Assembly: GCA_965178125.1 (NCBI GenBank)
Contig: OZ237735.1
Coordinates: 682,001 to 746,000 of the forward strand
Reading direction: 5' to 3'
DNA length: 64,000 bases
Origin: Bilabrum cf. latius
Lineage: Eukaryota
Within the stretch, counting starts at the first letter, position 1, and the number at the start of each line of letters is the position of its first letter. Position numbers and translations under genes: made by a program. Shown here piece after piece: positions 10,499-61,300 of this stretch. A model generated the notes under the pieces. It did not search any database. It was not told the DNA's origin and worked only from the letters and a program-made list of their open reading frames with translations.

Positions 10499-12679
10499 AT
10501 GATTGCAAGCCAGAGGAGGGGCAATGGAGGAACACAGCGGTCTCGACATTCTTCTATATGTGGTAGCTCATCGCTTTTGTGCATAGGCACCGTATTCTGT
10601 TGTTTTGTAGCTCTCGTCCAAGTCGGTTTCATCGGCGCATTGGTTGTAACCAGGTCTGCAAGTCCTCCTGGCCAACCGTATCGTCCTGTCAGCACTCGTT
10701 TGAGAACTGAAACTGTCGAGGGGGGCTCTTCTACAGAGACCGCTGCGCCTAGCCCGATACCCGTCGCTGTTCCATCAACAGCACCGGATTTGGATCGCAA
10801 CGTTGGCGTAGCACTTACCCCGAGACCAGCTCCGGTTGAGGGGCAAGGCAGCACGGACATATGGGGGGAAGAAGAGACACATGGGAATGAAAAAGCAGTT
10901 CCCAAGGTCGAGGCATAGAGTCCCGCTGCAGTTGAGCCACAGCGATAGGCTGAGTCCATATCGAGCCCAACCAGCAACTCTCGAAATGCATGGACTCCAA
11001 AACTAGGAGAAATACCAGACTTATCGTCGCTAGCACCTTTTGAAACCGGAAGAGCTCGTCGTGCGAGCGACGTCGACACGAGCAGCATGACTGCGTTCGT
11101 GTCGTCGGGGGGAAGATTCCCGGTGGCTGTCGTCACGTGCTGCCGGCCCACCATGCTGCGCGAGTCCTTGGCCAGCCTGTTAAGCTGCAGGGGTATCACT
11201 CGGGACGATGTAATTGTGATCTAGGACGCTAGCAACCCTGACGTGAAGCCCGGCCTGCTGGCCGAAGTGGCACAGGTGGCCAGGGAGTTTGGTGTGGGCC
11301 TCGTTCGGTCCGAGCCTGGCAGGCTGCGGGGCAGACGGCCTGACGGAGCCGAGCGGATCGCCCAGCACTATGGATTTGCCCTGCGCACTGGTCTAGAAAA
11401 CACCCGCGCGCCTGGTGTAATCGTGGCCGAAGACGATTTCCTCTTCTCTCCCGATTTCTACGAGTACTTTCACGCGGCCGCCATCGGTATAGAGGCGGAT
11501 GACTCCATCTGGCTTGCGTCAGCTTGGAACGACAACGGGCTGAGACATAATGTCGCAGACCCGTGGCGCGTCTGGCGCACCCGTTTCTTCCCAGGGCTCG
11601 GCTGGCTGCTGCCACGAGCCCTGTGGTAGGGCGAGCTGGAGCACCAGTGGCCAAGGACCCACTGGGACCACTGGATGCGGGATAGGCGAAGGCATAACGG
11701 CAGGGACGTGCTGTTCCCTGAAATACCGAGGGACTACCACATCGGTGTGAAGGGCACCTTTATGGACAGAGAGCACCACGACAAGTACTTCAGGACCACG
11801 GCCATGCACGCCCCGCCCAAGCCGCTGCAGGGACAGTCTAGTTTCACGTGGATGTCGAATGACGGGACCGAGGCGATCCGTAGGGCGGTGTAGCCGGGCT
11901 TTGAGCGAGACGTGAGGGGGCTGCTGAAAGACGCGACTGCAATCTCGAAGCTCTCGGAGCTCATGGACTTGGTGGATGCCACGAAACTGAAGGGCAAGCA
12001 GGAGCCCGCCGTCGCGAGGGTGCGATACACGGGGACAGGCATGGCAGACAACGCGGATTTTAGGAAGGTATTGAACGGTTTCTTCGACGTGTGGCACGAG
12101 CCGCAGAGGGGGTCGCGGGACGGCATGCACGTGCTTCGGCTTCGCGGCAAAGGGCCCGAGACCTCCGAGGGGCAGGGCGTGCACAGCAAGCTAGGCAGTC
12201 CTGCCGTCCTCGTGCTAGCGCTGCATGAAGGTGAATGGGAGAAGATGTTTTCTGGGGAAGGCTGGGGCGAGTTTGTGAAATCGGTCAAGCAGCAGGACGA
12301 GGCAGCTGGTGTCAGGCCATTGTCACCGGGTGACTTCGCAGCCCAGCGCAGGGTGATCAACGGTGGCGTGGGTCCCAGGAGCGCGGAGCAGTGGAGGGAG
12401 GGGGGTAGGGCGCTGGGGAAAGGAGCTGGTCCCTTCACAGGCAGCGAGATGGTGCAGAGGGGCAGCGAGCAAGAGTTGGCGATGCCGTCGGTCATGTCTC
12501 CACTGGACGATGCTGCGGGCGAGAAGGCCGTCCTATCCAGCTAGAGGCTATTTGGTAGGGGAGAGGGGTCCAGCGCAGTGGGATTCTGGTGGGCACCAGC
12601 ATCTCCTGCAGGGCAAAAGTATGGAGCAGCTAATTTCGCTACGGCCCCTGCTGGCGCTTGGAAAGGCGTGAACACATAA
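10499..12679 (+). CDS. GT13 beta-1,2-N-acetylglucosaminyltransferase (GnT-I/POMGnT1 family), type II membrane protein (about 726 aa)
   Basis: N-terminal TM anchor; motifs VIVI*D (TAG 11222, matching the family SQD motif), VAEDDFLFSPDFYEYF, SAWNDNG, FFPGLGWLL and WDHWMR. One frame through several TAGs to TAA 12677-12679. Confidence 0.9.
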
Positions 12680-12788
12680 CGGCTTCAACACGGATATCAG
12701 CCCTGCCATGTTTTTTTTTCATGATACTTGATTCTCTACACCTTCACTGCGCTGTGCAACGCCATAGTGGGCTCTGCTGCCAACCGAT

Positions 12789-14324
12789 TTAGCCCCGTTT
12801 CCTTGCCCCATCGCCGTTCTCGCCACCTCCAGCAGGTGCACCGGCGCTCTTGCCGAATCCAGCCTGCGGGGCCTGTGGGGCAGGTCCGCCGTCTCCAAAG
12901 TCGTAGTCCTGCAGGAACTCATACACGGAATTGATGATACCCCAAGATACGAGGCTTCTCGTGTAGTTCACGTGCACTCCCCGGAACAGCCCCTAGAAGC
13001 CCCCTCTCTCCCGGTGCACCGTTCTGAACGTGCCCCACAGGCTGGGGTGGGGCCCTCCTACCTGCGACTGTACCACGCTCTTTATCACGTTCAACGGGAA
13101 AAACAGCGTCGATATGCCCGCGCCGAGCAGCGCCCCCGTCACAAAGTTCCGGCCGATCTGCCAGGCGTGGCTCGGCTTGCCATCGGCGCCCACAGGGACA
13201 GGCATCATGTCGCGCACGGGCTCCCGGAAGATAAAGTACATGGCATTGGCCGGCCCGTTGCGCAGGAGGATGGGCAGCGTGCCCCTGTAGTACTCGCGCA
13301 GGCCGTGGGACCTCAGCTTGATGAACGCATCCATCATGTTCTCGTACCTGCTGGTGAAGTGCCGGTGCTGCAGCACGGTTTGGACCCGCTCGAGCGGAGT
13401 GAGGATGGCCTCCGTAGAGCCTGCCAACAAAGCTGCAGTGAGCTGCTGAGCCGCTGGCACGGAGTCAAACACTCCAAATTGATGGGTCTTCTTCAAGAAG
13501 TAGTCGTAGAGGCCGAACATGCAGCTCATAGTGAGCATTTTTTGAGCCAGCGGCGGTGCAAGCCCTCGATACAGGTGCCTCCAGCCCTCTTTCCGCATGC
13601 TCCTGGCCGCTTGCCACAGCGTCAGATTCTCAGCGGCCTATCTAAACATCAGCTTGTTTATGGGAAAAGTTGCCACAATGTTGACAAACGCAGCAATGGC
13701 ACCCCGGGCAAACTCTGGCCCGGACGATCCATTAGGATCCCTTCGTGGCACCGTCTTCCTAGGAACCGATCTCGATACCCCAGAAGTTGCACCATCTTTG
13801 GCAATCTATGCGGACAATGACCCACTCGGCGCTCCAGATAGGGCGGGAGCAGCACTGGTAGTTGCAAAAACAAGCGGCAAAGATGCAGATCCGAGTGGAT
13901 GTCTGAAGTAGCCAGAAGTCTAGGGTCGTGCCGATTCTGAGCCATAGCTTGGACCGCATAGTTCCTTAACAGGTATTCTATGCTCCAAGTAGTGCTTTGC
14001 GTGCCCAACGAGTCCTCCAATATACCGCTTCCCCTCATCTATCGCAACTCTAGCTCCCTTGCCAGCACGAAAGACGCTACCACAGAGACCTTCCATATTA
14101 ATTTCAAAGTTTAGCAGACGTAAAGAACTGGAAGCCGCACTCGAGGATGAGCATGAGCTCCAGCTAGTTGTATTTGAGCCGACAGATAGCCTTCCTTGCG
14201 CAGCCCGTGATTCAACGCCAGCAAGCCAGTTTGAGGGAGCTGCCCTGCCTACGTACGTTTCCTAATGACCATATTCGAACCTCCCGGCATTTATGGTCCC
14301 AATTGAAGGCAGAGTACCATCCAT
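12789..14324 (-). CDS. mitochondrial carrier, SLC25A51/MCART1-like (putative NAD+ carrier), with long N-terminal extension
   Basis: Motifs [38 protein letters not shown] and [27 protein letters not shown] match SLC25A51-type carriers. First in-frame ATG is 14324 (alternative 14096); TAA at 12789-12791. Confidence 0.85.
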
Positions 14325-14765
14325 GTCGGCTACCGCAGGATGCTGTCAATCGCAAACAACCTTAAGTCAATGTCACGTACCTACAGTTACGTTGATCTAC
14401 TGTCAATAGTAGTCAAAACTACAGTTCCGATGCTCCTTACAGCTGGTGAGAGACTTAGATCGCAAAAACACCGCACGTGATCGGCACGCAACTCAGCAGC
14501 AGACAGCAGTCTATCAGCTTAGCTAGTGCAGCAGCAGCTGTGTCTGTACCTACTACTTGACAAGTAGAAAAGAGTGGCTGCTTCAAAACTGCCCCCTTGC
14601 GACAAAGAGGGGCTTATGCCAGGTTGCAAGAAGTGTCTTGTACCACGAGAAGTTGCAACCGCCGCGTCGCCGGCGCTCCTGTCGCTCCCGAATCCGGGGA
14701 TCAGCTGAATAGCTGTTTGCACCTGACAAGTCAACATACGCGGTTATCGTCATTCTTAATGCAAG

Positions 14766-17700
14766 TTACCTTCTTCTTCCTGTTCTTCCGCGGCTGCTAC
14801 GACCATTCTCCCGCTCGGTGGCGCCTGGATCCCCGACCGAAGATCGCCTGCGATGACCGCGGGGCGCACTACCCCCATCCCCAGGCTCTTTGCGCCCGCG
14901 CCGGCTCCTTCGACGCTAGCCACGCCGAGACCGACTCCTCCTGTCACGATGCCTCGCCCCTGACTGGGCCCCGACTCGTACTGCCCCCGATAGGCTACCT
15001 CTCGGAGACTACAGCCCTCCGGCCATTCCGTGGCGAGACACCGTCTCAGGAGCCGCACCGGAATGCGATGCACTCCGCTGCCTACCACCGTGCCGAGCTG
15101 CCCACCCGCCAGTCACGGCGTGTCCATGCACACCAGCGCGCACCGCCATCACGACCTTCCCATCCCCAGGCACCCCTCCACGTGTGCCAGCTGCGGCGTG
15201 CGCTCCTTCAGTGGAGCTGGCGGGCACTCCCGGCTGGTGCCACCTGCCCCGCATCGAGTGCTCGTGCAGCGACGCTGTCGTCCCAGTCACCTCCGACAGA
15301 ACAGTGCTGCCTGCGCTGGAGCTCGTCACAGACCCGGCCTCCCCCTCCTCTCCACTCGTCACACCTTCCTCTGTCCCCTCGTCCGACGACCGGCTCGCCA
15401 GCTGTGCCCTGGGCTCTGCACTCTCGCCGACCGCGCCGAGCACTCCGAACCCCAGTGCACCAGACGTGCCGGCAGCGGGCGTCCCCGGCCCACTGACGGC
15501 CTCGCTCTCTGAGCTGAGCCCAGACACCTCACCCGTCAGCAGAGCTCGGTACATGCCTGCATGCACGCCGGGCCGGGGCGGGCCCCACCCGTCCCCGTCC
15601 TCTCCCGAGAAGTACCCCGCGTTCTCCTGCGCCCGCACGCTCCTCGCCCTCTCCTCCAGCACGTCGGCCGCCTCTTCCCCAGAGGAAGGGAAGCGCCCGA
15701 GCCCCAGCGCTGCAGCGTCCGAACCATGCCCCGTCGAATCTGACGAGGGGGCAGCAGCATCAGCAGCATCAGTAGCAGCATCAGCGGCGGCACCAGGAAG
15801 CTCAAAGCTTGTCAAGTCCTGCGCATCCTCATAATCTCCGCCTAGTTCAGTGCCAGTCAAGCGTGGCTAAGGCGGCAATCTGTGGGTCTCCGACCCCAGC
15901 ACCTGCATGACTGGCTTCAGCTCTGGGCTCCTCCCAATAGAAGCTTCTAGGCCTTGCGCATCCCGCTGCTGACGCTCCTGCAGCGCCCTCTCCTGCTGTT
16001 CGTCGTAGCGCAGGGTAGACCAAGACTTTTGCCGCTCGCTCTCTATGGCAGATAAAACGGCCTGCCCACGGTACTGGGTAGAAGTACCGCTGGGCTACGG
16101 TCCAGAGTAGTTGCTCGTGTCGGTTGCCATGCTAATCGAACGCTCCGGTGCTCCTCCTGCACTAGCATCAGCACCAGCGGCAGAGACAGAGGCAGAGGCA
16201 GAGGCGTTTGTCTGCCCCGAGGAGGAGGCATTGTCAACGCCATCGGGACTGCTCGTAGAACTTGCCGATGCGGAGCCTGCCGTGCCAGCATCCTTCGCCG
16301 AGGCAGACGCTGCACCAGGCGCTGCAGCCAGCATCTTCCGACGCACGTCCGCACCCTAACCCATGGCCACCTGACGCGAGAATTTGCCGCCGAACTTCTG
16401 ATCCACGCACCAGAGATCCACAAACAGCCAGCCGGCGTTCTCTCTAATGTAGTCCTCGATTGACTCGAAGCTTGGAAACACTCCATCTCGCACGGACTGG
16501 GGGCCATGCACGAACATGTTGCGGAGGTAGTGCACCAGGCCGAACAGCGGCCATCCGTGGTGCACCCACTTCTGCTCGTATTCGCGAGGGGGAAAGTGCG
16601 TCCGCCGCCCCTTCTCGGATTCCCAGCCCTCGGGGCCGAGGGTGGCGGGCGGCGGTAGTGCCCTGAACCAAGAGTTGCCACCGAGTCTTGCCCGCACCCG
16701 GCGCTCCAGGGACCTGGCGAACTGGATCTCGCGCTGCCTCTGCTTCGCCCTCTCCCTGTCCGCCTCGCGCTAGACCCGAGAGGCTTCTCTCTCCGCTGCA
16801 GTAGGGCGGTGGTCGCGCTGCTCCCTCCTGCGGTGCCGCTCCTGGCTCTTGCTGCGGCGCCCCATCCCGCGAGCCCTGTGGCTATCCCGGACCTCGATGC
16901 CCTCTGCCACCAGCACCAGAAGTCGGAACTGCGCTGCCCTCGGCCAGAACAGTACGTGTTGGGTCAGTTCATGCACAGGCTGCCTTCGCCTGTGGTCGTG
17001 GTGCATGAGCCGAGACACGAGGTCCCGGGCGGCGAACTCCTGCCTCGAGCTGAGACCGGTCAAGTCTGGCTTCGACCGGCACCGTATGCCCCTCACCCGC
17101 TCCTCGGCAGTCTTACCGTACGGATGCTGGCCTCCAGTCATCACAAAGTGAATCAGGCATCCTAGAGAGAAACTGTCCCTGTACTGCGCCTCTGCCTCGG
17201 CCTGCACGCCGGTGAAGTAGTCCGATCGGGTTGGCCTGCCCAGCTCAGTCGGTCTCTTGCTGCTGCTGCTACCGTCTCCTGATCGACGGGCCCACGCCCG
17301 AGAGTACTTCTTCTGCTGACCGGTCCTATGGCCGCGCCGATGGCCGCCCCTTGCATCAAGCTCCTCCTCCTCCTCTGCCAGCTCGGCCCCAATGCGTCGC
17401 AGCCGGTCTACTTCTGAATCCGCGCGCATCTGCAACGAACGCTCAGAGTCCGTGGTGGAGCCGTTCGAGCCACCGTCATGACACAGCGGCTCAAAATCTG
17501 TGGCACTCAATGCCCAGACTCCATCGTGGTCTGCGAGCTCCTCGCCGAAAGCACCAACCGGCCCGCTCACGGCATGCGTGCGCCTCTGCTCTGGAAGCAT
17601 GCCGCGCCTAAGCTGCCTGGGGTACTCGGTCCATTCGTCAAAATCCTCGCGACGGACGTAACCCCCCAATATAGATCCGTCCTGCGTGATCTTCCCAACG

Positions 17701-19280: not shown

Positions 19281-19409
19281 GATTTTGCTGATCTCGCACG
19301 CACAAACGTGCCGGTGGTCCAGCAGTTGTCACACGCCCCCAAGTGAAACTGCCCGGGATTGCAAAGAGGATGCACCTTTTCAGGATATGATCGGGAGTGA
19401 TGCACTGAG

Positions 19410-25348: not shown

Positions 25349-25352
25349 GCAC

Positions 25353-32084: not shown

Positions 32085-32747
32085 TCATGACTTTGAACCA
32101 GCCCCTCCAGTTTCGTCCAGCCCTTCTCGCGCAGCCGTCTACAATGCATCCTGCTCTGTGCAAATCCTCAATATTTCTCTCTTGTTGACCTCTTGCAGAT
32201 CCCCTCCGATAAACACTTCGTCAAGCAAGTAGTACGCCTTGTGGAAGTTAAAAATGATATCAAGTTCGCATACATTCCCGAAATACCTGTCCAGAACCTC
32301 AACAAAGTGATGGATGGCCTCGAGAGCAAGCAGCTCGTTGGCATCGGGATCGATACCCGCGACAAAGTACAGGCTGGCATAACTGCGTGCGTAACGAGAG
32401 CATGCCTAGAGGCAGACTACGTATTGGTGCATGAGCATGACTTGATCAAGGACGTGGGTGGCACGCCACGGTCTCACCGTCGATAAATTACTTTCTGGCC
32501 GCCCCACTCCAAGAAATTACACAGGCGACTGGGTCTTCTCAGCACAATGGTGCTAAGCTCTCGCATGATTCTAGTTTTCTCTTTTTGCTTGTAAGTCTCG
32601 TACCACTTGGTCAGGCGCACTTTGCCTTGCCGCGAGACAAGCAACAGGTAATTCAGCTGCAAAAAGGACGGAAACGAGAGGTTTTGAAACGATTTAAAAT
32701 GCTTAGAAGTCCTTCCCAATGGCGAGCTGCTGCCTTACCATCCCCAT
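32085..32747 (-). CDS. AP1S: AP-1 adaptor complex sigma subunit; introns 32657-32738 and 32383-32477
   Basis: Reads LLVSRQGKVRLTKWY...KVIYRRYASLYF...VEVLDRYFGNVCELDIIFNFHKAYYLLDE. In-frame TAG at 32139-32141 in EQDAL*TAA; TGA at 32085-32087. Confidence 0.92.
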
Positions 32748-33062
32748 GGTGCTATGAATGCGGTCTTGTGTCGCTCGCTGCCGGTAACTTGAAGCCGTGC
32801 TTGTGGCAGTTGCAACCGGCTCGTTGCTCGCCGTAATCGTCCAAATCCAATCAATACACATAAATTGTCATTCACATATTGTCCCTGTCATTAAATAGTC
32901 TTATTCTGCGCCGCTTACTGCTGATCGTGTTGCAGGTTGGCAAGGTTGCCTGTGACAGATATCTCAGAAGAATCAGACCAAGGAAATCTTTGGCATTCGA
33001 ACACTTGACAACACGCTCGAAAATTGTATACTTGGCCGATGCAGCAGTAGACTCGAGCTGCG

Positions 33063-35042: not shown

Positions 35043-35498
35043 TCAGACTGTCAGCCTCCACCGACCCTTTTGCCGTCGCCTGTTCAGCACCCTCCTGCCC
35101 TCTGCAGTGCGCATCCGCTTCAGGTATCCATGCTTCCTCCTCCTTCTTCGCACATTGGGCTAGTACGTTCGCTTCACCATCTCATATGCCAAACCCTTGC
35201 TTGATTCTTCCACAGTGTTCGGCTTAGAGGGGGATTCACACACGCCATCCTCAACCACAACTACATGGCCTCGCTGGGGTAATCCAACGTGCGAGTCCGT
35301 TTGATGAGCCCATGGGGTAAATACGAGCTAACTTCTTGATTCAGAACCAACACTTTCGAGTTGAGAAGACGAGGGTACCACAATCGGAGGAATCGTCGGC
35401 GTCTAGCTGGTTACACAAGCAGCATGGCACATTCGGCACCCTGCTACGCTCCTCAGTGAAACTTGCATACTGCGAAAAATCGCTTGCCGCAGTGCCAT
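35043..35498 (-). CDS. MRPL34: mitochondrial ribosomal protein bL34m with N-terminal presequence (151 aa); absent from the ORF track
   Basis: C-terminus [44 protein letters not shown] is the L34 signature, with TAG at 35160-35162. N-terminus [20 protein letters not shown] resembles a mitochondrial targeting peptide. TGA at 35043-35045. Confidence 0.92.
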
Positions 35499-35669: not shown

Positions 35670-38600
35670 TCAGTACTCGGTGTCCACCGTAACCTCGAAA
35701 GGGAGGCTTGACATGCCAAGAGGCTACAGTTCTCCGCGACCGAAACCGGCAATCGAACCCCCATCGCCCTGGTTCAAATGCTGGGACCGATCCGCTTGCT
35801 CGGGCCCGCTGCTGGCGGGGTCGTCCGCCAGCTAAGACACGAGCCCGAGTCGCCTTGCCTGGGCTTGCCACCTCGTCGTCTCGCTGCTGCCATAGAGCCG
35901 AGCATGCAGCCGTCTCTGCTCCGCCGCGGCAGCTTCCTGCCTCGCGTTCCACCTCGCCTAGGCCAGTGTGAGGGTGCCCCCGTGCCTGCCAGTGCCAGTG
36001 GTGGCAAGGACCATCTCCTCGCCGTCACCGGCGCTCGCACTGACGGCGTCGGGCTGCACCGAATTTCTGGCGTGCTGCACACCTGCACGACCACCCCTGA
36101 CCCGGCGAGTTCTGAAGCTCGGGGTCTGCGCGGGCCGCTTGGGATAAGTCGGCATTCTCGGGACTGCCTTGGTGGAAGAGGACTGTGAGGAGGAGGCTCC
36201 TTCCGTGCCTCGGGGATTGCGGCGGAGCACTGGCTGCGCATGGGACCTGGACCTGGCAGCACTCTCTGCACCTGCACCTGCACCTGAGTGACTTGCCTGT
36301 GGCATTGAAGGACCTACCCTTGGGGGCCACCTGCCGCCGTGCAATGCGCTCAGCACTCGACCACCAGAAGCCGTGTTCGTGTCTCCTCCACCTTCACCCC
36401 CGTCTCGCGCGTATAGGGACACAGACCTCCGCCGCAGAGAAGACTTCCTCCCCGCGGCACCGCTACTGTCACCAGAGACATTGCCCGGCTGCTGCAACCG
36501 CTCCTGCTGCTGCCCTCTCGTGGACAACCCTGCCCCTGCCCCTGCCCCTGCCCCTGCCCCTGCCTCTTTCTGTGCATCCCCTGCAAGCTCGAAGCCCACT
36601 CGAGCCCCGTCAAGGCGCCCTTCCTCCGAGTCAGGCAGGGGCATGCGACCACCAGTGAGCAGCGCAGGCACGACCAGATCACTGCCCGGACCATCCTCGG
36701 CCAGCATCGCGTTTGATCTGCGACGCCCCTGCTTAAGCATGCCAACTTTGGATCGACTCTGCAGGCGGGAAGAGGCGGATCGGCTCTGCAAGGTGGGATC
36801 GGCAGCAATCGCCGACGCCGCATGCACCACTCGCTGCCGGCCACTGCGAGCACTGGATCCCCTGCTGCCCCCCACAGCACTCCCCGTGGAGCGGTGTGCC
36901 CTCCCAGCTTCCCGCCAGGCTCCAGGAGCGGCGCCCGCGAGACCTCCTCCTGTAATATCGTAGCCCTCGGCCTCCAGCGCAGCGTGCCCAAACATGGAAG
37001 AAGCTTCAGCGGTGGTCCAGTGCGACCTCGTCTTCTTGTCCACTGCCTGCACCTTGCGACGCAGCAGGGCGTTGCCTCGCCCCTCGGGCTGCAGCTTCAC
37101 TAGCGGGCGCCGGCCGTCCAATCGGTCCGTGCTCAGCATGCTGAAAATGCTGCCGCTCTTCAGGGCTAACCTCTTTTCGTCCAGCCCTTGTCGCGGTTGA
37201 GATCTGGCCAAGCTGCCTTGCCTGCGGCTCGTCCTCGACAGCCCGCCCTGCCCGTCCTAAAGAAGGCTGCGCTTCGGGGCAGCCCTGGCACTCAAACTGC
37301 CTGGCACAGCTCCGCTAGCTGCGGCTTCTTCCTGCCTGGTCCCTGGCATATGAGTTCGCGCCGACATTGGGGCTACTGGCACTGGCTCCTGCCTCGCACT
37401 GAAGCGGCCCAGTGTGGCCGCCCCGGCAGTTCCCCAGGTTTGATTCCGCTGGCTAGTGGCCTCTGAGGGCACCAAGTCAAGCAAGCTCGCCAGTTCGATG
37501 GTGTTTCGGGGCAGTACTACTTTCTTGGGCTTGTGGCCCGGCTTGGGACTGGGTCCTACGGGACTGCTGGATAGCTGGCGGGCAGACACTGAAAACGCAT
37601 GCGGTTGGCTCGATTGTCCTGCGCGCTCCCCAAGCTCGTGGCGCAGCCTGGCGCTCTCCTGTTCCAGGTGACGCACATCTTGCACCGCCCCCTCGCCAAG
37701 AACAAGCCCGATCTTATCTAGGCTAAGCCTTGGAACGGCATACTTGCTCTGCAGCTTTGCTGCCTTGCCGATCTTGCCCTCCAGGGATACTCCCATCGAC
37801 ACTGCCTCCAGGCCGCTCTTCTTCTTCTTGAGTTGCCGCAGGCGGTCTTTCTCCTCCGTCTCGAGCTACGCCTTGCTAGACTTGGCCCAGTACCGCGCCG
37901 CTGTCCGTAGCTGTTCCGCGCTAGGCACCCCGATCCCGGCCATGGCCCACCTGGCCTGGATGGTGGAGCTCTGCATGAGCGAGAGAGCAGCTGCCTGCGC
38001 CTCCGCTTCCTCCATCGTAGGTGGGTGCTCGTCGCGAGCTTCATCAGGATTGACCATTCGGATCAAGTTCTCTAGCTTCTCTTTGTACTCCCCTGTGATG
38101 TGCCTCTTCCGCTTGCCTCTGAGCTTCTCGTTGCCCTCATCATCATTGTTCGTGTCCTCGCCGGATGAGTCGGAGCTAAAGCTGTCGTCGCGGTAGTACT
38201 TGACACCCTGCCTCTTTGTCATCTTTGCGTGCTCTTGCTCGATCTGCTTGGACTCCCGATTGACTCGCCTTTCCAAGCTGCCGAGAACAGAGCCCAGCCG
38301 CTTTGGCTGCCGACGTGGAACAGCAAAGCTGGGTGTGCGAGGGGTCGACTTGGACCCATGCTTCAGCGGGCGGTACATGCTGCCGTTCTTTTGCATGCGG
38401 GGGCTAGGAGTACTGGGCACGTTCATGTTTCGGTGCGATGCTACCTGCTTCATACCGGCGTTGACGTCCCACTGAACGGTGCCAGGCACAGCAGACCCCG
38501 TCTAAGGGCGCGCCTGCAGCTGCACCAGGCCAGGCACCGCAACCACAGATGTCCCATTGCCCACAAATACGGGCCCCTCCCCGCGGTCCAAAGCCTCTCC

Positions 38601-41600
38601 CCCTTCGTTGTGCAGCAGATTTGTCTGCTGGAATTGATCCAGCAGCGCATCGCCAGCAGTGAGCTTGCTGGACGTCTTGGCCGCCGACATGAAGGGGCTT
38701 TTGGATGGACTAAAGCTGTGCATGGAGCCGAGCTTCCCCGTATCGGTCCCAGTTCGCATCGGAGATGCTTTTCCACCGCCTCCACTGCTACGGCTTGGAC
38801 CGTGGTCTCTCCTGCTGGAGGCTCCTCTCCGGAGCTGGGCCGGCGTCGGCAGCAGGTCCCTCTGTGACAGAGCCGATGTGATGGCCTCCCTCCGTCGCTT
38901 CGCTTCAGACACGCCTGAAGAGACCGCCACAACGGAATTCTACAGTTGCTGCATGCTCTTTCTCCTAGACAGCTCTCGCTGATCAAAGTGCTCCAGCTCC
39001 AAGTGCCTATCGTATCTGCTCTCGACCTCTCCGAGTGTGGATGGCACGACAAGCCCTAGCCTGGTCTTCAGCTTCGGGCGATACATGACCAGGTGGCCCT
39101 CACCGGCTACACTTTCGTCATACATTATAGCCTTCTTTTGCTTATCAGTGAGGCCTTCTCGCGCTGTCTTGGGACCTGCGCCGTCCACACTATCAAGCTC
39201 CAGAGCTGTGCGATGCGGGTGCTACATCTCGGCGCCCTAGCTGCCCTATTCTGTTGCAGCTGGTGCGCCTTCGTTGGCTGTATTCGCTACGGGCTTAAGG
39301 TCTGTACTGGTCAGGTTGCTCGGATCGTTAGAGTCTGCCAGCGAAGGGCCGGCAAACGGCCGCCGTGCGACGGGTGCAGCGATGTCTCGCTCTGCATGAA
39401 CCCCCCCTGCAGCTGGCTGGCTGTCCGCTGCTTCAGCAAGGCCCACTACACCCTTAGATGAACTGGAACCGCTGCTCTGCAAAGCAAGCAAATCGGTATT
39501 TTCATCGAAGGCGCCAACTTCGGAGCCGTCCAGGTCATCGTCGTCGTCATCATCGAGCCCCGAGGTAGGTCTATGCTTTACGCCGCTGCCCCCTAGCTGC
39601 GTACCAGACGAACTTGCACCATGCCCGGATGATTGATCATACATCCAAGGCTAAAGGCCAGCTTCGACCTCTTTTGTAATTCCAGTGTCTACTAGCACGT
39701 GGCCTAGTGATTTGAGCACCCCTTGCATGCCTGAAGATGCCTTGCCCAGGCTGGCCCTGCGGACGTGCCCGACGCGATCCGGCGACAGCTGCAGCTGCAA
39801 GCACGCAGCCGTGTTGAGCGAAGGGCCGGACTGTACCAACAACCCATGCCGCAGCAACGGAACAGATGGTCGAGGCGTACATTGATCGTCGGGCAAGCCG
39901 TCCAGTCTTCCGTAGTGCAGCAGTGCCCCAGCGATCCTGCTGGCTCTGGGGCCGCCCAGTGCTGCCACCAGCTCGTGCTGCACTAGGGCAGCCCCATGAA
40001 TACCCCGCACTACAGAAGACTCGAGCCCCTTCATAAGGATTGCGGCCGTCTTCTGACTATCGGATTTCTAGTCCTGGTCCGCCTTGTGCAGCAAGAGCAG
40101 CGGGTATCCCTTGGACTGGCCAAAGCTGGACCGTACTAACTCGTCAAGTACGACCGGTGCCTCGAACAGCTGCGCGCGACAGCCGCGCTTATTCTGCAGA
40201 CCGGCAGGCATCAGCTTGCTCAGAGCGTACCTCGACTCCCAGCCGGCCGATGGTGCCCTGCTGCTGCCGTCCGATGTAGAGCTGCTGTCAGTCGAGTCAC
40301 TGTCACTCCCAGAGTCAGTCGACTCGGCTACCGATCCATCACGCTCCCTGAAGCGCTTAAACGCAAGCTCTGGTGACTCGCATCCAAGCTCTGACTCAGA
40401 GATGACGTGAGCAAGGCCTTGCGTCAGAATGTGCCCCCCGAATACTTCAGGATCAGCCGCAAATCGGAGCAGGCGAGCTGCAAAGACAGACACTGCCTTT
40501 CTCTGCGCGGCATGCTTTCGATTCATCGCATCAATATCTTGATCGGATTGGACCTCGCTGGAGTAGTCCCCCCGGGGCGCAAGTGCAGCTGCCGCGATGG
40601 CGGCTACGAGCCCGTGCTCACACACGCTAGCCAGGATGCTGGACCTGTCAACGAGCTGCCTATCGGTAGCCTCTTTGTCCACGTCATCCATGAGCTTTTC
40701 CATCGCTGGACAGTCTCTCGAGCAGGCTAGCACCTGCTACTTTGACCATGCAGAGCAACGCTCCAATACTGCCGCAAGGTTTGGCCCGGACTGCTGCACC
40801 CGGGTTGCCGCGGCCCGCTCCATGCCGTCTGGATCAACTTGGCCACCACTGGCATCATCAGAAGCCTGTGTATAACTGCTTTCTACGCTCTAGTTCTTTG
40901 ATTGCTCTCTGGCAGCCTAAGCTGCCGTGTCTAATGCTTTTGCCTGCTGGCACAGCTGCCAAATCCTCGCCCTAGCCAAGATCCGACGGATCGCCTCCAG
41001 GCAAGCCGTCTAGCACGTCAATGGGACCGACCCCGCCCTATCCACCGCCTCTCGATGCGATTCCATGTGTACAATTGCATCTTCATCCGGGAGCGACACG
41101 AGAGAAGGCATTTCCAGCGACTCTGTGACGCTGCCGCTTGGCCCAACAATCGTGCCAGAGACACTCGCAACTTCACTGGCAGACGTACTGGCAGACTGCA
41201 ATATGCGCGTGTCAGCTGAGGTCCAATCAGCGTCTAAAAATGAAGCAAATGGGTCATGGAATCTCGATGCGGAGCAGCCGTTTGTCGTGCTACTGATGCT
41301 ACCATCCATGAGCTGCGAACTAGCCTGCGCGTGCTCCAACCGATCGATAGCTTCATCGCCTAGCACCGTCACCGTTGCGAGATCCACAGCTTGCACGCTT
41401 CCGCGGGCCAAACCGCGCCGCAAGGCAGGAAATAGAACAGGCCACGCCCTTGAGTGGCTCGCCAGCGCGGGAATGCACCAAACTGCCGCAGCATACACGG
41501 CGTCAAGTGGCGGCGGCAGCCGAGGAGCCGGGACGGGCTGTTCTGAGCCAGCGAAGGCAGCAGCCATCCGAGTTGCCCGCGAGTCGCCAATCGCAGTTAG

Positions 41601-42875
41601 AGCGGACGCTGCCCTTGCGAGCCCAGGTAGCACCATGACAAAGCTCGGGAAAAGGTCGACGCAAGGCAACAGGGCGGCGGTCCGATGCGCGGTGGCGCTG
41701 TCAGCGACTGATGAAGCCTGCCCGTGCCGCTCTGGTTTGGCTTCTGCTGACGATAGAGTTGTCGCAGCCGAGCCGCGGGCTGTGTCGAGCAGTTTTCCAA
41801 TGCACCCGCTCGCACTCACCCACGCCGCCACGTTCCCTCGCATTCGAAGTACTCCTCCCAGCACCCGGCATGCTCTCTCGAACGCAACTGCTCTAGCCCC
41901 ATTGCGCGATTGACTCTCCTCGACCGTCTTCAGGATCAGCTGCTCTGCCTTGGCATGGCACTGCTCCACTGCCCTCCACCGCGACATGCCTGCTGCATCG
42001 ACGTTGCCCCTTTCCCGACCTGAGCGCCCCCCAGCAGGAGGGACTCCCGCCGCCTCCACAGTGCCGGCCTCGGGCGGATCCACGTCCGGCTTCCAGCGAG
42101 ACAAGACACGGCCAGCGGCTCGCAAACCGCCCTGCTCCGACACGCTATCAGCAGCAGGAGCACCTACCTCGGATACTAGCTCACACAGCAACGTCAGGCA
42201 AGCAAGGTCCACAAGGAGCGGGGAGGTCTGTGAGCCAGCCAGTCTGCTCAGAAACCCGACGAGGCGCTCCGAGAAGACCAGACTTGCCACGCTTTCGTTA
42301 TGGATCGTTGCGTTGGACCGCAGAAATACAACCATTGCCTACAATGCCTCTGCAGGGGGTATCGAGCTGGAACCACCATCCACAGCTCTTCGCAATCTTG
42401 CTTGGCTTGGTCGAGTGCTGGCCAGGCCGACTTGCTGCAACTTATCGTCATGTGCAAGGACAAACGCCTAGATTCTTGCAGCAATTTGGGCTACACCAGA
42501 ATCCCCGAATGCATCGGCAATGTCATCCCCGCGTTTCGAGTGGAATGCAGCGGCAACACCCCAATTCAGATTCGATACATCCGTTGCAGTTGCCGTGCTG
42601 GATTGCAGCAGCGACTAGGCTGCAAATCCACTCTTTGTCGATCGCTTGCTTGTCTAGTGCGTGCTCTTGAAGTAGTGACTAAGGGTGACGTTATCCTCCA
42701 CCTGCTTTGCGTGAAAATATCGAGCAATGTCCTCTCCAGGCACCTGCAAACTTCTAAGCAACAGCAGCCTGCGCTTCTTGGATCCACGTTCCCACGCTCC
42801 CCGAAAGTCAGCTGCTGCCTGCCTTGAGTTTCTAGCAAACCACCACCTTGGTGGGTGAAGGAAAGGATCAACCAT
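35670..42875 (-). CDS. very large hypothetical protein (about 2400 aa); N-terminal half predicted helical, C-terminal half low-complexity
   Basis: Ten standard-code ORFs (42654, 41010, 40068, 39651, 39246, 38940, 38502, 37866, 37257, 35958) lie in one frame and all end in TAG. ATG at 42875, TGA at 35670-35672. Confidence 0.7.
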
Positions 42876-43124: not shown

Positions 43125-45091
43125 ATGTCCAGCTATAGACCACCGAGTGGCTATGGGAACCCACCTGGTGAGAAATGCCTACTTATTCATGATTTCACGT
43201 GCTTCGTCGCCTCGATAGATCCCGACTCGGGTGTTTTGCTTGAAATACGCGCAGGAACTGGCCGACTTGTTTCCGGACGGCTCGTATCTGGAGCTGCTGG
43301 CGGTGGATACAAGGGCGTTGGCTTATCTACTTAGGTTAAGGTATCGGATAGGCCAGTCACCAGAGGTGGTGTGGCCGGGATGGAGAGTAGACTGCAGAGC
43401 GCTGGCCCAGGGCGGCAAGTGTACGATTTGAGCTACTTTATCGGCCTTATCCGGCAGCGTTGCGGGGATCTCACGAAAGAGATCGCAAAGTTAGGTAGTG
43501 AAATTTAGAGAAGGAGCAGAGATGCCAAAACCATGGAATCGCTTGAACGGGAGTACGACGATCTCATCAACGAGGTACGCCAGCTAGAGGGCGAGCTTGC
43601 TGACTATAACCTCGCAATGGATAAGAGCAGGGCTGGTACCGACCCCTCGGAGCTCAAGGTGCACCAGATGAACTTGAAGGCGCGCAACGCTGTGAGACTG
43701 CGTAGCTTCCGCCAGATCACGTCTCCCATCGTCGTCTTTCCTGCACCTGTACCGACCCCCCCCCACCCCCCCCCTCCCAAGGATGTACTTAACCTAGCAT
43801 TTCGCAGGAAGAAGCTCGAGCAGTAGATGCTGTGTTTTTGGAGCGTAGGGAGCGGGAGGAGGGGATCAAGCGCGTTGAGGAAGCGATCGAGGCCCTGCAC
43901 AAGAAGGCCGAGGAGAGGCTGGCGTCGCTGCCCCCCGCTCTGCAGCAGGAGTACAGGCAGCTGCAAGACAACAACAAAAAGATGGAGCACCAGGTCACTC
44001 AGATGCAATCTGAGCTCGAGCGGATGAATCATGCCGTTTAGGAGGCAGAGCAGCAGCTCCGCAGCGACCGCAACCGCCAGGAGTTCGCAGGCCTGGAGCG
44101 CAAGCTCCACGTGTTCAAGCGGGAGCAGTCGGCACTTGAGGAACAGCGTCGCATCGCGGAGATGGACCCTGCAGAGGCTCGACAGAAGATCCTGCAGAAG
44201 GTGAAGCAGGACGTGGCAAGGATCCAGGCGGCCGAGGCCCAGATCGGCGAGCTGCAGCAGCAGCTTGAGCAGGACGAGCGGGCCGTGAAGGAGCTGGATG
44301 TGGCTGTTGAGCAGCGGCGCAACGGACAGGGCGATGGGGACAAGTACGAGGAGCTATACAAGCACGATGCAAAGATGACTGCAGTGCTAGACTCGTTCCC
44401 TGGTGCGAAGCAGAGGGAGATGGAAGCGCAGGGCAGGCACAGGGAGACGGTGGTGGCGCTGCTGGAGCACATGAGCGGAGAGATCGAGCGCGAGCACGCG
44501 ATGCCGACCAGAGAACAAGCCAAAGAGATGGCCAGCGACGTGGACGACAAGAAGCGCGAGCTGGGCGCCAGCAAGACCACCATGGAGCGGCTCCGAGAGG
44601 AGCTCAGGAAGAGGCAGAGCGAGCTGACCAAGATCACGACGCTCGACGAGAAAATCCAGCTCGAGTTGTCCTCGCTGCGGACCAAAATGACCACCATGAA
44701 GGCCGAGCTCGAGGTATTCGAGGACCTGGACGCGCTGCGGAAGCAGTCCGAGGCCACGACCGAGGACCTATCTGCTCGCAAGAGGGAGTACTCGGGCAAG
44801 CTGGAGGGGATCAACCCGGTCGTGGCGGAGGCTGCGCAGGAGTTCAGGAGGCTTGAGAAGGCCCTAGAGACCCACCCGAAAGCTAAAGAACTCGCAAGTG
44901 CGGAGAAAAGGGTCAAGCAGCTCGAGCAGCAGATCTTTGGGATGAAGGACTTCATCGCTAGCAAGGCCGTGGCGTGCGACTACTCCACCGTGAAGGCCGA
45001 GGTGCTCGGCCTCGCTTCCGAGGTGAATGAGCAGATTTGCAAGGTGCAGTCCGAGGTGAAATCGGCTGGGCTAGCCTCGGGCATGTATTAA
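43125..45091 (+). CDS. IFT74: intraflagellar transport protein 74; introns 43168-43254 and 43692-43807
   Basis: Reads GLST*VKVSDRPVTRGG..GPGRQVYDLSYFIGLIR..LEGELADYNLAMDK followed by a long coiled coil. TAA at 45089-45091. Confidence 0.9.
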
Positions 45092-52861: not shown

Positions 52862-53049
52862 CGTGGTTCAGCCAAAGATGCTCCAAACGACGAGCCACGG
52901 AAATGATGCCGACCGAACCGCTCTCGAACGAACCTTCTCCGCTACACCGGTGGCAAATCCGGATCCGATCCGCACGAGACGCTGCGAGGGTACGTCTTCC
53001 CTGCCGCGGCAAGAAGAGGCATCGGATGCAGAGACTCCCCCTGCCACGC

Positions 53050-56254: not shown

Positions 56255-56391
56255 GCTGTCTAACGCGCGAAAAGGGTGTCAAGATGCCGCGATCCTGCCG
56301 CTGGTGCGGAACCAATACTGTTGTCGCCGCGCAAACGGCAGCTTCCCCTTCAATTTTCTTTCCAACGAGCAAGCCATTCACCACAAGAACA

Positions 56392-58143
56392 TTACTGTCC
56401 ACGACCCCTGCTATTGCCCCTTCCCCTCCCTCTTCCACGACCTCGCCCTCGTCCCCGTCCCCGTCCCCGTCCTCGCCCGCGCCCCCCACCCCGTTCAGAC
56501 CGCGACTCAGAGGGCCCCGCATCCCCACGACCCCCGGCTGCCTTGCCGCCCTCTTGGCCCTTCTCCTTCGCCCCTATCCCAACGTTACCGCCACCGCGAT
56601 CCCGCCCTCTGCCTCGCTCACGCCCTCTGCCCCTGTCTCTGCCCCTGTCTCTGCCCCTGCCCCTGCCCCTGCTCCTGCCGTGGCCAGGTTCATCGTCACC
56701 GGCTGGGACCTGTGGAGGCCCGGCCCCACGCGGCGCACGGGGCCGGGCACTACCACCTGCTGCACTCTTTCGTGCCGCCGCACCACCCGTAGGCTGGGAA
56801 GCACCCGCACCGCCATGCGGTGCACCGGCTCCAGACCCCTTCGCAGCCGCCGCCGCGTTGGCTGCCTGGACTTCGCTCCAGCTCTGCGCTGCGCTGCTGG
56901 GTCCTGCCTAGCTCTGAGCCTTCTTTACCTCCCCCCAGCTCCGAGTAGTGCGCTCTTTGTTGCCCCTACCCCCTACAGAGTCAGTCTCCTTGTTCCCAGC
57001 GGCTCTGCGCCGTGCAGCAGCCGCTGCTCCTCCCGTTTCACTACCGGTGGCTACAGCCACGGCTCCGCGGCCCCCTCGCCCCTCCCCTTGCCTGCCCGTC
57101 CTACCCACCCTCGCTCTCGCGCCGCCAGTCTTGCCCTCATCGTGAGACCGATTAAGTGTCTGCTTGGGGGCCTTTTCACTAAGCTTCGATTGGACCGCCT
57201 GCGAGCTCACCAGCGTGCCGCCCTGTCGCCAGCCTCCGCTTCCCCCGCCGCTGCCGCCAGTAGCGGGGCCCCCGCCCTTGTGCCGCGCGTTAGCCCCGCC
57301 AGTAGCAGATCCCAAGTCTGACCCCGCTTGCTTGCGAATAGGAGCTCCCCAGCCTGTTCGAGCCTTGGCCGCAGCCCCGCCCGTGGCACCTCCACTTCCT
57401 GCAAGAGGACGTTTCGCTCCGGCTGCTCTAGAACTGTCCGAAAACACCATGACTCCTTTCTTTGGCTGGGCCCGCGCTGGCCGCCCGTGGCGATTACGAC
57501 TGTCTTGCTTCATCTGTCGCTTGCCCTTGGATCGCCCGCCTGGACTGGAGGCGGCCCTCAACTCGTCTACAAGCAACGCTGTCCGGCGCTGGGCAGGGGG
57601 GCTGCCCTGTCCCTCACTTGGGGACTTCTTCTTTGGCAGCAAACCCTCCAGCGGGATGAAATCGACAGCATACCCGCCGCCTTCCAAAAACTTCATGAAC
57701 TTTGCGTACTCTGGGGCTCGCTCCAACGTCCCTGCGAATGGGTTGTGCTGCTGTTCGGTTCGAAACGACAGCACTGGAGGTGGTTGCAGACTAGGCGGAA
57801 TCTGTAGCGCCAGCTGCCTTTCCTGTCCTTGCATAGTCGTAAATTTTGACCGCTGAATCGCGTGCACGACACGGGACAGGTCATCTCGATTGATCCTGAC
57901 AGCTGCGGTTGTGTTGATGTTTGCTGGCGTCAATACGCGCTTACCAACGGTGGACACGTCGCCTCCACGCAGTACATGCAACAATCGAACAGCTATACCA
58001 GATTGGCGTAGGGTGATTCTTAAGTATTCTTCAATATCACTATCATTCGCCACACCAGGGATGCCTTGCAGCCAAACCTTAATGCCGGTTGCTACAGACT
58101 TGGACGGGCGCTCTGATCGACGGGCTGGTCGCGTACCAGCCAT
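56392..58143 (-). CDS. UPF3/Smg4-like nonsense-mediated decay factor with RG-rich C-terminal tail (about 583 aa)
   Basis: RRM-like N-terminus (IKVWLQGIP...KFTTMQGQERQLALQIPP) followed by AGTLERAPEYAKFMKFLE, resembling the UPF3 GTIExDPEYxxF motif. Reads through TAG 56908 into (RG)n; TAA at 56392-56394. Confidence 0.65.
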
Positions 58144-58312
58144 TAATTCTGCAGGATTTTGAAGTCCCTCCGTTCACAATGATCAAAATGGCGTGTGCGA
58201 GGCGATTAGCTCCGCTCAGGCGAAATGTCACTCGTCACGCCGGCCGTCGCAAACAAAGCGCAAATGCTAGTCGAATAACCACGACATAAAGGGCAACCCG
58301 CATAAGAGGGCT

Positions 58313-61300
58313 TTATGCCTGCATGCTACGGCGTAGCTCAGCCACAGCGGCCTCAGCCTCAGAGATCTCGTCCCCACTGGCAGCTCCCACCTCCCCATCG
58401 CCGGCCTTCGCCTCCCCATCGCCGGCCTTCGCCTCCCCATCGCCAGCCTTCGCCTCCCCATCGCCGGCCTTCGCCTCCCCATCGCCAGCCTTCGCCTTCC
58501 CATCGCCGGCCTTCGCCTCCCCATCGCCGGCCTTCGCCTCCCCATCGCCGGCCTTCGCCTCCCCATCGCCAGCCTTCGCCTCCCCATCGCCGGCCTTCGC
58601 CTCCCCATCGCCGGCCTTCGCCTCCCCATCGCCAGCCTTCGCCTTCCCATCGCCGGCCTTCGCCTCCCCATCGCCGGCCTTCGCCTCCCCATCGCCGGCC
58701 TTCGCCTCCCCATCGCCGGCCTTCGCCTCCCCATCGCCAGCCTTCGCCTCCCCATCGCCGGCCTTCACCTTCCCATCGCCAGCCTCCGCCTTCCCATCGT
58801 CGGCCTCGTACTCCACTGATTTTCCGCTAGCATCTGGTCCAGAATCAGGACCAAGCTGCAGATTCATGTTGCTAGCAGAGTGCCGCAGCACCTGTTCTAC
58901 GTGGCTGACAGCATCAGACGGCAGGTTGTGCTGCTGCGCGAACATCTCGGCCAGCGACTTGGCCGAATCGCCCCTGCGAATGACCACCTCAGCCACCTGA
59001 TCCTCCGATATCTCCACTTCAACAATGGCTTCATCAGCCTCAGCCTCCCCATCGCCGGCCTCGTACTCCACTGATTTTCCGCTAGCATCTGGTCCAGAAT
59101 CAGGACCAAGCTGCAGATTCATGTTGCTAGCAGAGTGCCGCAGCACCTGTTCTACGTGGCTGACAGCATCAGACGGTAGGTTGTGCTGCTGAGCGAACAT
59201 CTCGGCCAGCGACTTGGCCGAATCGCCCCTGCGAATGACCACCTCAGCCACCTGATCCTCCGATATCTCCACTTCAACAATGGCTTCATCAGCCTCAGCC
59301 TCCCCATCGCCAGCCTTCGCCTCCCCATCGCCGGCCTTCGCCTCCCCATCGCCAGCCTTCGCCTCCCCATCGCCAGCCTTCGCCTCCCCATCGCCAGCCT
59401 TCGCCTCCCCATCGCCGGCCTTCGCCTCCCCATCGCCAGCCTTCGCCTCCCCATCGCCGGCCTTCGTCTCACTGCCTCCAGAGGGAAGCAAGTCGTCTAG
59501 ATTACCACTGCCGTTCGGTAGATGCACAGCAATCTCTTCATCTGCCTCCTCCTCGTCCTCATCATTAATGGCACCATCCTCTTGCACCTGCTTCTCATTG
59601 CCGCCCGGAGCAGAATCAGGACCCAGCTGCAGATTCATGTTGCTTGCAGAGTGCCGCAGCACCTGTTCTACCAGCCCAGCAGCATCAGACGGCAGGTTGT
59701 GCTGCTAGGTGAACATCTCGGCCAGTGACTTGGCCGAATCGCCCCTGCGAACGACCACCTCGGCCACCTTGTCCTCCGATATCTCCACCTCAACGATGGC
59801 CTCGTCCAGCCCATCGTCTTGTGCAGGCTTCGCTTCACCGGCCGCGCCAGAGGACTCCTGCGAAGGCGCACCGTCAGCCATTTCACCGGGGGTCGCAGAG
59901 CTCGCGTCGCCAGTCGGCTGCTGTGCTCTGTCCGCTGCTTGTGCGGGCTCCGCATTGCCCGGGCCAGAGCTCCCAGCTTCGGCCGGCTCTGAAGCACCCG
60001 AGGACATAGCACCCCCGCTGTTCCCAGCACCAGTCGCCTGATCCGTGTCATCGGTCATGGTGCCAGTGACAATCCCAGAGTCTTGCAGCACGGAGGAGGG
60101 CGAGCTTGGCTTGGTGGGCCCCACGTTGTCGGAAGAGACATCTGTGTCGAGCGATCGAAGCCCGACCCGCCCCGTAGCTTTGGATTCTGATTTCGACGCT
60201 GCCGGGCTACTCTTTGTAGATTCGCGTGCTCCGCTCGGCGGAGTGTCTTCCAGCGTCCGAACTGCGCCGCTTGCAGCCGACTTGGCGTCGAACTGGCCTC
60301 TGGGCTCGCTGCCTGCGAACGAAGCGACCTCGTTGAGGAAGTCCTGCAGCTCGTTGCCTGTCTCCCCGTGGTCTACTGGGGAAGGCACGTGCGGCAGGCG
60401 ATCTTCCACTGGCGGTGGCGTGCGGCGCCGGGAGCCTGCTCTCTGCAGCGGCTCTGCTTGCCGTGCGGGGGCATCTCGACCTCGACCTCGCTCTTTCGGC
60501 TCGCGCGGGGGTGGCGCTTGCCTGCGTGGTGGTGGTGCTTGCGGCGGAATGCTTCCTCTCGTCGGCCTGCTCTTGGCGTTAGATCGGCCCTTGTTCCCCA
60601 AGGGAGATGCATGGGGCACTCTGTCGCCTGAGGGGCCCTTCTGCGCGCCGAAACGGGACGGAGCTCCCGTCGATTTCGTCCCCGCCTCGCTTCGTCTCGC
60701 TGGCTTGTTGCCCTTGCGCCGTCCGGCACCCGCGCCCAAGCCAGTGTCTACTTTCGACCTGGCCCCTTCGATGCTGGCGCGCCGCTTGCGCTGCGACTTC
60801 TTCCCGAGGCTCGCCTCCAGCTCTGCCTTCCTCTGCCGCTTGCCCTGCTCGATCGACATCCTCCGCTTGCGCCGTGGCCGTCCACCAGACCGACCGTCGC
60901 CCGCCACGTCACGGTCTGCCGAATCACCCCCTGGGCCGTCCAGGCCCGAAAACCTCGACTTCCTGGCAGAAGCACCCGACTTGGACCCGCCACGAGCACC
61001 CGACGATCCCGCCGCATCGACCTTAAGAGGCGAGTGGTCAATCCTTGACGTCGAGAGCAGGCCGGTCGTGCCCCGGCCCTGCTGCCTCTCGTCGGCGTGA
61101 GCGAGTGCGGCTCGGGCCTCCGCCTTGCGAGCATTCGCCATAGCGCGGCGTGCCGAGTCGGCCGCGACTTGCACTGCGACCTCGACCTTGTACCGACGCC
61201 ACGCAGCGGCTTTAGCCTGCGCGGCTTGCCGCCTTCTGTCCGAGGCTAGAATGGCTCGCTCTCTGTCTTTTTGCTCGCGTGCGCGCTACTTGGCCTCCTG

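Follow-up and report, generated by a model that had tools for sequence, protein, structure and literature searches.

The DNA described here is a 64-kb window, by which we mean the whole stretch C1:682001-746000, in a 48.6-Mb assembly of 111 contigs. It has a G+C content of ~60% and holds many genes with few introns, and its subject of interest is the genetic code of these genes, in which UAG appears to be read as glutamine (Gln) and only UGA and UAA as stops. A first-pass annotation had reported 22 complete gene models, 16 ending in TGA and 6 in TAA, and our counts of frame ends agree. Eighteen long frames, together 16,850 codons, contain 96 TAG, 610 CAG and 155 CAA; twelve of these frames close with TGA and six with TAA. 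Four further models end in TGA, at 25353, 26726, 32085 (AP-1 sigma) and 35043 (the mitoribosomal protein bL34m, whose stop, 35043-35045, lies at the end of the homologous region). The six TAA stops were confirmed where they had been placed (Table 1), and each closes a long frame that stays open only with TAG readthrough. The absence of internal TAA and TGA from the window frames, also claimed before, holds but is partly true by construction. Frames delimited by TAA and TGA cannot contain these codons, and therefore an externally anchored test was made on dynein genes outside the window, which agree.

The meaning of TAG

A search for the dynein AAA1 domain gave 28 matches in 19 genes, for each of which 10 kb was fetched. 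In the 19 frames (60,152 codons) there are 272 TAG, 2,183 CAG and 369 CAA; internal TAA and TGA are absent. Twelve of them run for 3,057-3,295 codons without TAA or TGA as far as the conserved C-terminus, six have no stop in 3,332 codons and leave the 10-kb stretch open, and in the remaining one the frame is closed by a TGA that appears to be intronic. If TAA were Gln as well, at the CAA:CAG ratio, ~46 internal TAA would be expected. In-frame TAA at Gln columns, which would have contradicted the earlier claim, was looked for in all 19 frames and none was found. These counts bear on table 6, the code in which UAA and UAG both mean Gln and under which the TAA ends would have been mis-called. It is the commonest variant code (PMC5304391), and three of the six TAA ends in the window have neither a homology nor a transcript anchor. 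However, nine TAA ends are anchored by homology, no UUA tRNA turned up in our scans (see below) and the TAA inside a small-GTPase match is intronic, so that, with none of the ~46 expected codons seen, table 6 is extremely improbable.

The dynein frames, with TAG masked as X, were each aligned to 120 homologues, at least 60 of which cover the columns of 161 TAG. These 161 gave log-likelihoods of +75.9 (Gln), -82.8 (Glu) and -103.7 (Lys); applied to the sense codons, the method returned the standard residue for 61 of 61. At columns conserved to at least 90%, Gln was found at 28 of 41 TAG, 326 of 470 CAG and 32 of 49 CAA, and no TAG fell on Tyr. Columns of the organism's own paralogs gave Gln at 20.1, 18.3 and 21.1% for TAG, CAA and CAG, respectively, with Tyr at 0.9%. 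TAG behaves like the minor codon CAA, in that both increase with decreasing G+C content at third codon positions (Spearman -0.86 each, 19 genes). Outside the dyneins, TAG lies opposite Gln in the Q44 column of the release factor eRF1 (Gln in 90 of 95 homologues) and at the Gln of the DTAGQ box in two small GTPases. On these alignments, a nuclear code with UAG as Gln and UAA and UGA as stops is well supported.

Gene ends and transcript-like contigs

Among 35 gene ends anchored by homology, 26 are TGA, 9 TAA and none TAG, giving a 95% upper bound of 8% for TAG. They comprise 12 dynein ends at the conserved C-terminus (9 TGA, 3 TAA), those 20 of 30 small-GTPase loci (from 65 matches) in which TGA (16) or TAA (4) comes after a terminal Cys prenylation motif, and the ends of eRF1 (TAA), IFT74 (TAA) and bL34m (TGA); the count leaves out 10 GTPase loci without the terminal Cys motif and 7 dyneins without the C-terminus. 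Three GTPase matches have an internal TAA (one match) or TGA (two); the former and one of the latter are intronic. Termination of genes at TAG, the other finding that would have spoken against the earlier claim, was thus not seen among these 35 ends, which are anchored by homology.

UAG could nevertheless be Gln internally and still end a minority of the genes, or serve as a stop close to the poly(A) tail, eRF1 being outcompeted elsewhere. The 0 of 35 leaves room for this up to the bound given above, and eRF1 keeps E55, T32 and Y125 (see below). Sense TAG, however, occurs close to true ends, 10 codons upstream of the CaaX end in one GTPase (L233) and 17 codons upstream of the AP-1 sigma stop, and in 94 ab initio frames TAG was neither depleted nor clearly enriched towards the end (12/2820 in the last 30 codons vs 134/28,492, p=0.88). 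These frames were drawn from 484 kb on three contigs and end in 72 TGA and 22 TAA, some of these ends being intronic. Frames with up to 47 TAG are, in addition, served by one tRNA gene. We therefore hold partial termination to be very unlikely. Tandem stops behind gene ends were not enriched (TAA+TGA, 8/276 in frame vs 16/552 out of frame), and a context-dependent code of the Condylostoma or Blastocrithidia type was not seen, UAG in the data examined being neither a terminator nor depleted upstream of ends.

A set of transcript-like contigs came from X1, one of four runs compared, all in the form of contigs. This run is not on record as RNA and was taken as such solely from one spliced joint and the gaps between genes. 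Against the window these contigs show 0 differing letters across 211-3285, 5369-10372, 10511-12703 and 12768-14622, and the TAGs there are unedited. They end 10, 24 and 21 nt beyond the stops at 5379, 12677 and 12789, and another ends 453 nt beyond its TGA; they give a weak hint of where genes end, as contigs cannot fix ends. The three contig ends at only 10-24 nt after a stop (window 5369-5379, 12679-12703 and 12768-12789) hint at very short 3' untranslated regions. In run X4, from a diverged strain or a relative, no TAG codon was hit by the 40 differences listed out of 327.

Could in-frame TAG be an artefact of sequencing error, pseudogenes or UAG-to-CAG RNA editing? The assembly contains at least one foreign contig, since a second 18S rRNA gene at C95:6099-7900 is quite unlike the tandem 18S copies of C12. 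This second gene may be dinoflagellate-like. On the other side, in-frame TAG is spread over many contigs and found in essential genes of single copy, eRF1 included, a metagenome contig (L085, described below) independently has an in-frame TAG, and RNA editing is spoken against by the spliced X1 contigs, which show no differing letter over TAG-bearing genes. An artefact is accordingly as good as dismissed.

Table 1. Stop codons, in-frame TAG and other features of the window.
Feature	Position	Strand	Basis
TAA stop, GnT-I/MGAT1-family gene (10499-12679, 6 in-frame TAG)	12677..12679	+	X1 contig 10511-12703, 0 differences
In-frame TAG opposite Gln of solved GnT-I	11222..11224	+	phmmer, TAG=X, vs PDB 1fo9
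TAA stop, mitochondrial carrier gene (12789-14324, 5 TAG)	12789..12791	-	X1 contig 12768-14622, 0 differences
TAA stop, kinase-like gene (14766-19280, 13 TAG)	14766..14768	-	end without homology anchor
TAA stop of IFT74	45089..45091	+	homologue residue 638/641 aligned at query residue 354/369
TAA stop, 583-aa gene (1 TAG), no Pfam match	56392..56394	-	end without homology anchor
TAA stop, repeat-rich 1212-aa gene (3 TAG)	58313..58315	-	end without homology anchor
In-frame TAG at conserved Gln of mitoribosomal bL34m	35160..35162	-	
In-frame TAG opposite AP-1 sigma Gln, 17 codons upstream of TGA stop	32139..32141	-	
2401-codon frame, 20 TAG, TGA end	35670..42875	-	
90-nt GT..AG intron absent from X1 contig	10154..10243	-	

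Other features of the window genes were observed in passing. The minus-strand gene at 58313-61951 encodes a protein with three PFU-like domain copies and long 7-residue repeats, and the plus-strand gene at 33039-34397 one with nine near-identical C2H2 zinc fingers. The 583-aa protein of 56392-58143 (minus strand) has a long Arg-Gly tail, and its N-terminal part may resemble the nonsense-mediated decay factor UPF3. At 175-663 (minus strand), an open stretch of 162 codons lies in frame beyond the TGA at 664, mostly within the same X1 contig; it is probably due to chance, as it scored non-coding.

The CUA tRNA and eRF1

The first-pass annotation had predicted a CUA-anticodon tRNA charged with Gln and an eRF1 rejecting UAG, neither of them encoded in the window. 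Indeed, ARAGORN finds no tRNA in the window, and both genes lie elsewhere in the genome. An Rfam tRNA search, in which 63 of 780 candidates were scored and 48 matched, found a CUA-anticodon tRNA gene on the minus strand at C23:907607-907679. It folds as a full cloverleaf (z -2.68), is followed by a T run and is single-copy in the genome, and TAG is as frequent as usual in the genes of its neighbourhood (153 in 39,120 codons). Three non-exhaustive pattern scans of the genome found no other CUA tRNA and no UUA tRNA; one UUA-like match (C3:1136980) was rejected as not being a tRNA. The predicted gene therefore exists, and its charging with Gln we infer from the features below. A single CUA tRNA would decode UAG, and UAA would stay free because C34 cannot pair with A.

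The tRNA is a composite in its likenesses. Overall it is identical to tRNA-Tyr(GUA) and to tRNA-Gln(UUG) at 50/73 positions each. Its acceptor stem matches that of tRNA-Tyr at 12/14 positions and that of tRNA-Gln(UUG) at 2/14, its anticodon arm matches Tyr at 12/17 and Gln(CUG) at 11/17, and its 5-nt variable loop is Tyr-like; the D-arm, in contrast, matches Gln(UUG) at 16/19, Glu at 16/19 and Tyr at 11/19, and the discriminator is G73 as in Gln(UUG), against A73 in Tyr. Only 1 of 268 different-isotype tRNA pairs of this genome reaches 12/14 acceptor identity, yet with 24 comparisons made the Tyr likeness of the acceptor stem is suggestive and not decisive. The tRNA-Gln(CUG) has been proposed as the simplest source of a UAG decoder (PMC5304391), but a simple mutant of it does not fit the identities found here (44/73 overall, 6/14 in the acceptor stem). 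A tRNA-Trp origin found no support; its row was out of register and its counts were not used. The gene may therefore encode a tRNA of Tyr or mosaic origin that has been switched to Gln. Bacterial Gln determinants include G73, G2-C71 and U35, no eukaryotic Gln set being given in the same account, which names A73 and C1-G72 as eukaryotic Tyr determinants and states that amber suppressors from several tRNAs take up Gln (PMC9976931). Most likely, the CUA tRNA would be charged by the ordinary glutaminyl-tRNA synthetase (GlnRS) via U35, G73, G2:C71 and the Gln-like D-arm. The GlnRS gene (C33) has no TAG in 840 aa, and only six positions are unusual against 118 homologues; one of these, an Ala-to-Val change in an anticodon-domain loop, is common to the two nearest relatives and is a hint only.

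Two other features of the tRNA set were seen. Several near-identical Met(CAU)-type tRNA genes (L027, L037, L041 and L048-L050, the last three with an odd anticodon loop) resemble tRNA-Pro(UGG) in acceptor stem and D-arm; they may be copies of a tRNA-derived repeat, or else an initiator of unusual type. The nuclear tRNA-Ile genes L013 and L045 have the anticodon GAU; eukaryotic tRNA-Ile usually carries AAU.

Two Pfam searches found one eRF1 gene (C35) besides pelota, with four exons, two in-frame TAG and a TAA end. In human numbering, with the offset set from the motifs, GTS, T32, E55, NIKS, R65, S70, V71, YxCxxxF and Y125 are intact. Unusual residues include A27T, G29A, N30D, I35V, S60V, L69Q, E107Q, F117P, N129S and K130H. 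The Ala at 29 occurs in 0/84 close and 0/75 distant homologues and the His at 130 in 0/105 and 2/150, and Gln at position 69 is common elsewhere (43/132). Mutants tie E55, Y125 and partly N129 (PMC3632111) as well as L69 (PMC4381064) to UAG, and T32 has been tied to it too (PMC5304391). As causes, S60V, N30D and L69Q are each weak alone, mutants at 60 and 30 being near-neutral and Gln at 69 common. The stem branch leading to this organism and two close relatives is 0.43-0.53 long, against median tips of 0.08-0.10, and among cluster representatives no close relative of the N domain was found (best 72%). The demand on this factor is high: in the dynein frame with 47 TAG, full-length protein in half of the products requires at least 98.5% sense reading per codon, and for this reason eRF1 likely largely ignores UAG. 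Thus, the predicted specialised factor has a counterpart in a single, divergent eRF1 that is likely specialised against UAG, a specificity we infer from this demand, while the residues known to read the G at the third stop-codon position are intact. Most UAG recognition would have been lost through changes that surround the canonical contact residues and spare these residues themselves.

We estimate at about 0.88 the probability that UAG is Gln throughout coding sequence, that termination occurs only at UGA (in ~3/4 of genes) and UAA, and that the CUA tRNA and eRF1 account for this. Several observations weigh against it. Firstly, TAG is found at strongly conserved Glu columns 10 times against 4.4 expected from CAA and CAG within the same genes (odds ratio 3.4, p ~0.004), a post hoc test in which 3 of the 10 fall in one Gln-tolerant column. 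The second TAG of eRF1 lies at a column with Leu in 89/95 close homologues (Gln in 43/132 of the wider set), and at the TAG of the L085 contig other homologues have Glu. Secondly, 46 convergent gene ends show a slight, non-significant rise of TAG over their last 50 codons (p=0.12), and likewise of CAA (p=0.24). Thirdly, eRF1 has kept T32, E55, S70, V71 and Y125, and single changes at two of its altered positions, 60 (S60V in human) and 30 (N30A in yeast), were reported without clear effect (PMC3632111, PMC4381064). Lastly, the CUA tRNA carries C1:G72, a eukaryotic Tyr determinant (PMC9976931), and the Rfam search that found it had limited coverage.

The Glu columns and the tRNA raise an alternative, namely a partly ambiguous UAG that is Gln for the most part, with a CUA tRNA that sometimes receives Glu or Tyr, so that TAG would be tolerated at Glu sites. 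In one GTPase DTAGQE box the Gln and Glu positions are both occupied by TAG, and the D-arm is as near to tRNA-Glu as to tRNA-Gln(UUG). However, TAG has the same profile at paralog columns as CAA and CAG, and Tyr was never seen at the columns conserved to at least 90%. The excess at Glu columns can also be explained by recent Glu-to-Gln changes and may arise because GAG-to-TAG is a one-step mutation. Ambiguous decoding is thus unlikely, and we retain UAG as Gln throughout.

Relatives and the origin of the code

The organism is, by sequence affinity, a bicosoecid stramenopile related to Cafeteria, because its eRF1 and its axonemal dynein find their best named matches in Cafeteria roenbergensis (69% and 66%, respectively), a dynein tree (FastTree, 34 rows, including 33 of the 120 homologues) places it as sister to the Cafeteria clade with support 1.0, and its mitochondrial genome (C111, 38.4 kb) reads UGA as Trp, as reported for the bicosoecid Cafileria (PMC6723347). 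In the eRF1 tree, the wider group is supported at 95/91. Contig C111 has 24% G+C over its first 30 kb, where ARAGORN detects just 10 tRNA genes, and it carries very long ribosomal-protein frames of 808 and 1063 codons.

Among 80 metagenome eRF1 loci only L085 is close, being 92% identical and ending in TGA, and it has TAG where this genome has CAG. A divergent metagenome eRF1, L127 (1-1310), has two TAG opposite Gln of its sister L121 and a TGA end. It nests in a separate clade (100/99), and a tree grouping it with this organism is rejected (p-AU 0.0007, 20 rows). Its lineage, which is bicosoecid-like, may represent a separate gain of UAG reassignment, as judged from two codons on one contig. 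Alternatively, L127 is possibly a divergent paralog, or there may have been a single gain with later losses. The N domain of L127 is strongly altered (N61Q, L69N and S70A in human numbering). Two other metagenome eRF1 (L141 and L145) are divergent in the N domain and interrupted by several in-frame stops, a pattern to be expected of variant-code ciliates. An eRF1 deposited as Symbiodinium sp. KB8 (P0008) groups with bicosoecids at 100% support, which suggests that this record contains a contaminant.

A bolder scenario, which we consider tentative and rather doubtful, is that this is the first non-standard nuclear code of a stramenopile, that its decoder arose from tRNA-Tyr(GUA) by G34C and then switched to Gln, and that UAG was captured more than once in bicosoecids. 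The switch would have consisted of A73 to G, a new 2:71 pair and a Gln-like D-arm. If true, this would be a natural counterpart to the Gln mischarging that laboratory amber suppressors show, bicosoecids would form a small hot spot of reassignment outside ciliates, represented by this lineage and that of L127, and standard-code sisters could reveal how eRF1 tells UAG from UAA.

Comparison with known codes

The first-pass annotation had argued from wobble that UAA and UAG are usually coupled. The argument holds in so far as it forbids reassignment of UAA alone; reassignment of UAG alone is a permitted direction, published for several lineages (PMC5304391, PMC11687900). Such UAG-only codes are rare, and the published Gln cases come from transcriptomes or incomplete assemblies in which no decoding tRNA was found (PMC5304391, PMC11687900). 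Here, a contiguous genome gives the tRNA, eRF1 and GlnRS together, with the well-studied Cafeteria for comparison. It can thus be tested now how a CUA tRNA acquires Gln identity and which eRF1 residues separate UAG from UAA and UGA in a factor that retains its canonical contacts. Eukaryotic genetic-code expansion work reportedly seeks to engineer an eRF1 blind to UAG alone. In practical terms, annotation with the standard code would cut short most genes of this lineage.

The closest parallel is Iotanema spirale (Fornicata), with UAG as Gln and UAA and UGA as stops (PMC5304391). The codon assignment is the same, and in both cases a CUA tRNA and an altered eRF1 were predicted to be necessary. 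Iotanema belongs to an unrelated lineage and, unlike the present organism, was known from a transcriptome, its tRNA being a prediction only. Its eRF1 carries T32G, at a position that is unchanged in the eRF1 described here, and its dominant stop is UAA, not UGA. UAG is also Gln in the ciliates Hartmannula sinica, Trochilia petrani and Protocruzia tuzeti (PMC11687900). In all three, as here, UAG alone is reassigned; the first two show no sign of context dependence, and no suppressor tRNA was detected in them (PMC11687900). These phyllopharyngeans, whose class has a G+C content of 27-54%, end 87-98% of genes in UAA, against 9 of 35 anchored ends here. The present code arose at ~60% G+C with UGA as main stop, in contrast to the UAA-dominated ciliate cases.

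Other codes split the two codons differently: UAG is Leu in the rhizarian exLh and in TARA ciliate genomes and Ser in Scotinosphaera, while the ciliate PL0344 reads UAA as Lys and UAG as Glu (PMC5304391, PMC11687900, PMC10553269). All share with this genome the uncoupling of UAA and UAG and, where tRNAs were found, a CUA anticodon. In these codes, however, the CUA tRNA is closest to tRNAs of the amino acid it carries, whereas here the acceptor stem, anticodon arm and variable loop are Tyr-like. The table 6 organisms (Tetrahymena, hexamitins, ulvophytes and Amoeboaphelidium) share UAG as Gln through tRNA-Gln(CUA), and they read as Gln the UAA that is a stop here.

Within the stramenopiles, the Discussion of such codes in a 2024 paper names no member of the group (PMC11687900), and no UAG reassignment was found for it in the open literature, the scope of our search, or in the 2024 stramenopile review PMC11412368. 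The relative Cafeteria roenbergensis has an eRF1 N domain that is conventional at positions 29, 30, 60 and 69 and a dynein deposited as a 4210-aa protein. Its nuclear code is accordingly taken to be the standard one. The code of this organism, seemingly unreported in stramenopiles, is a new and apparently independent member of the rare type in which UAG means Gln.

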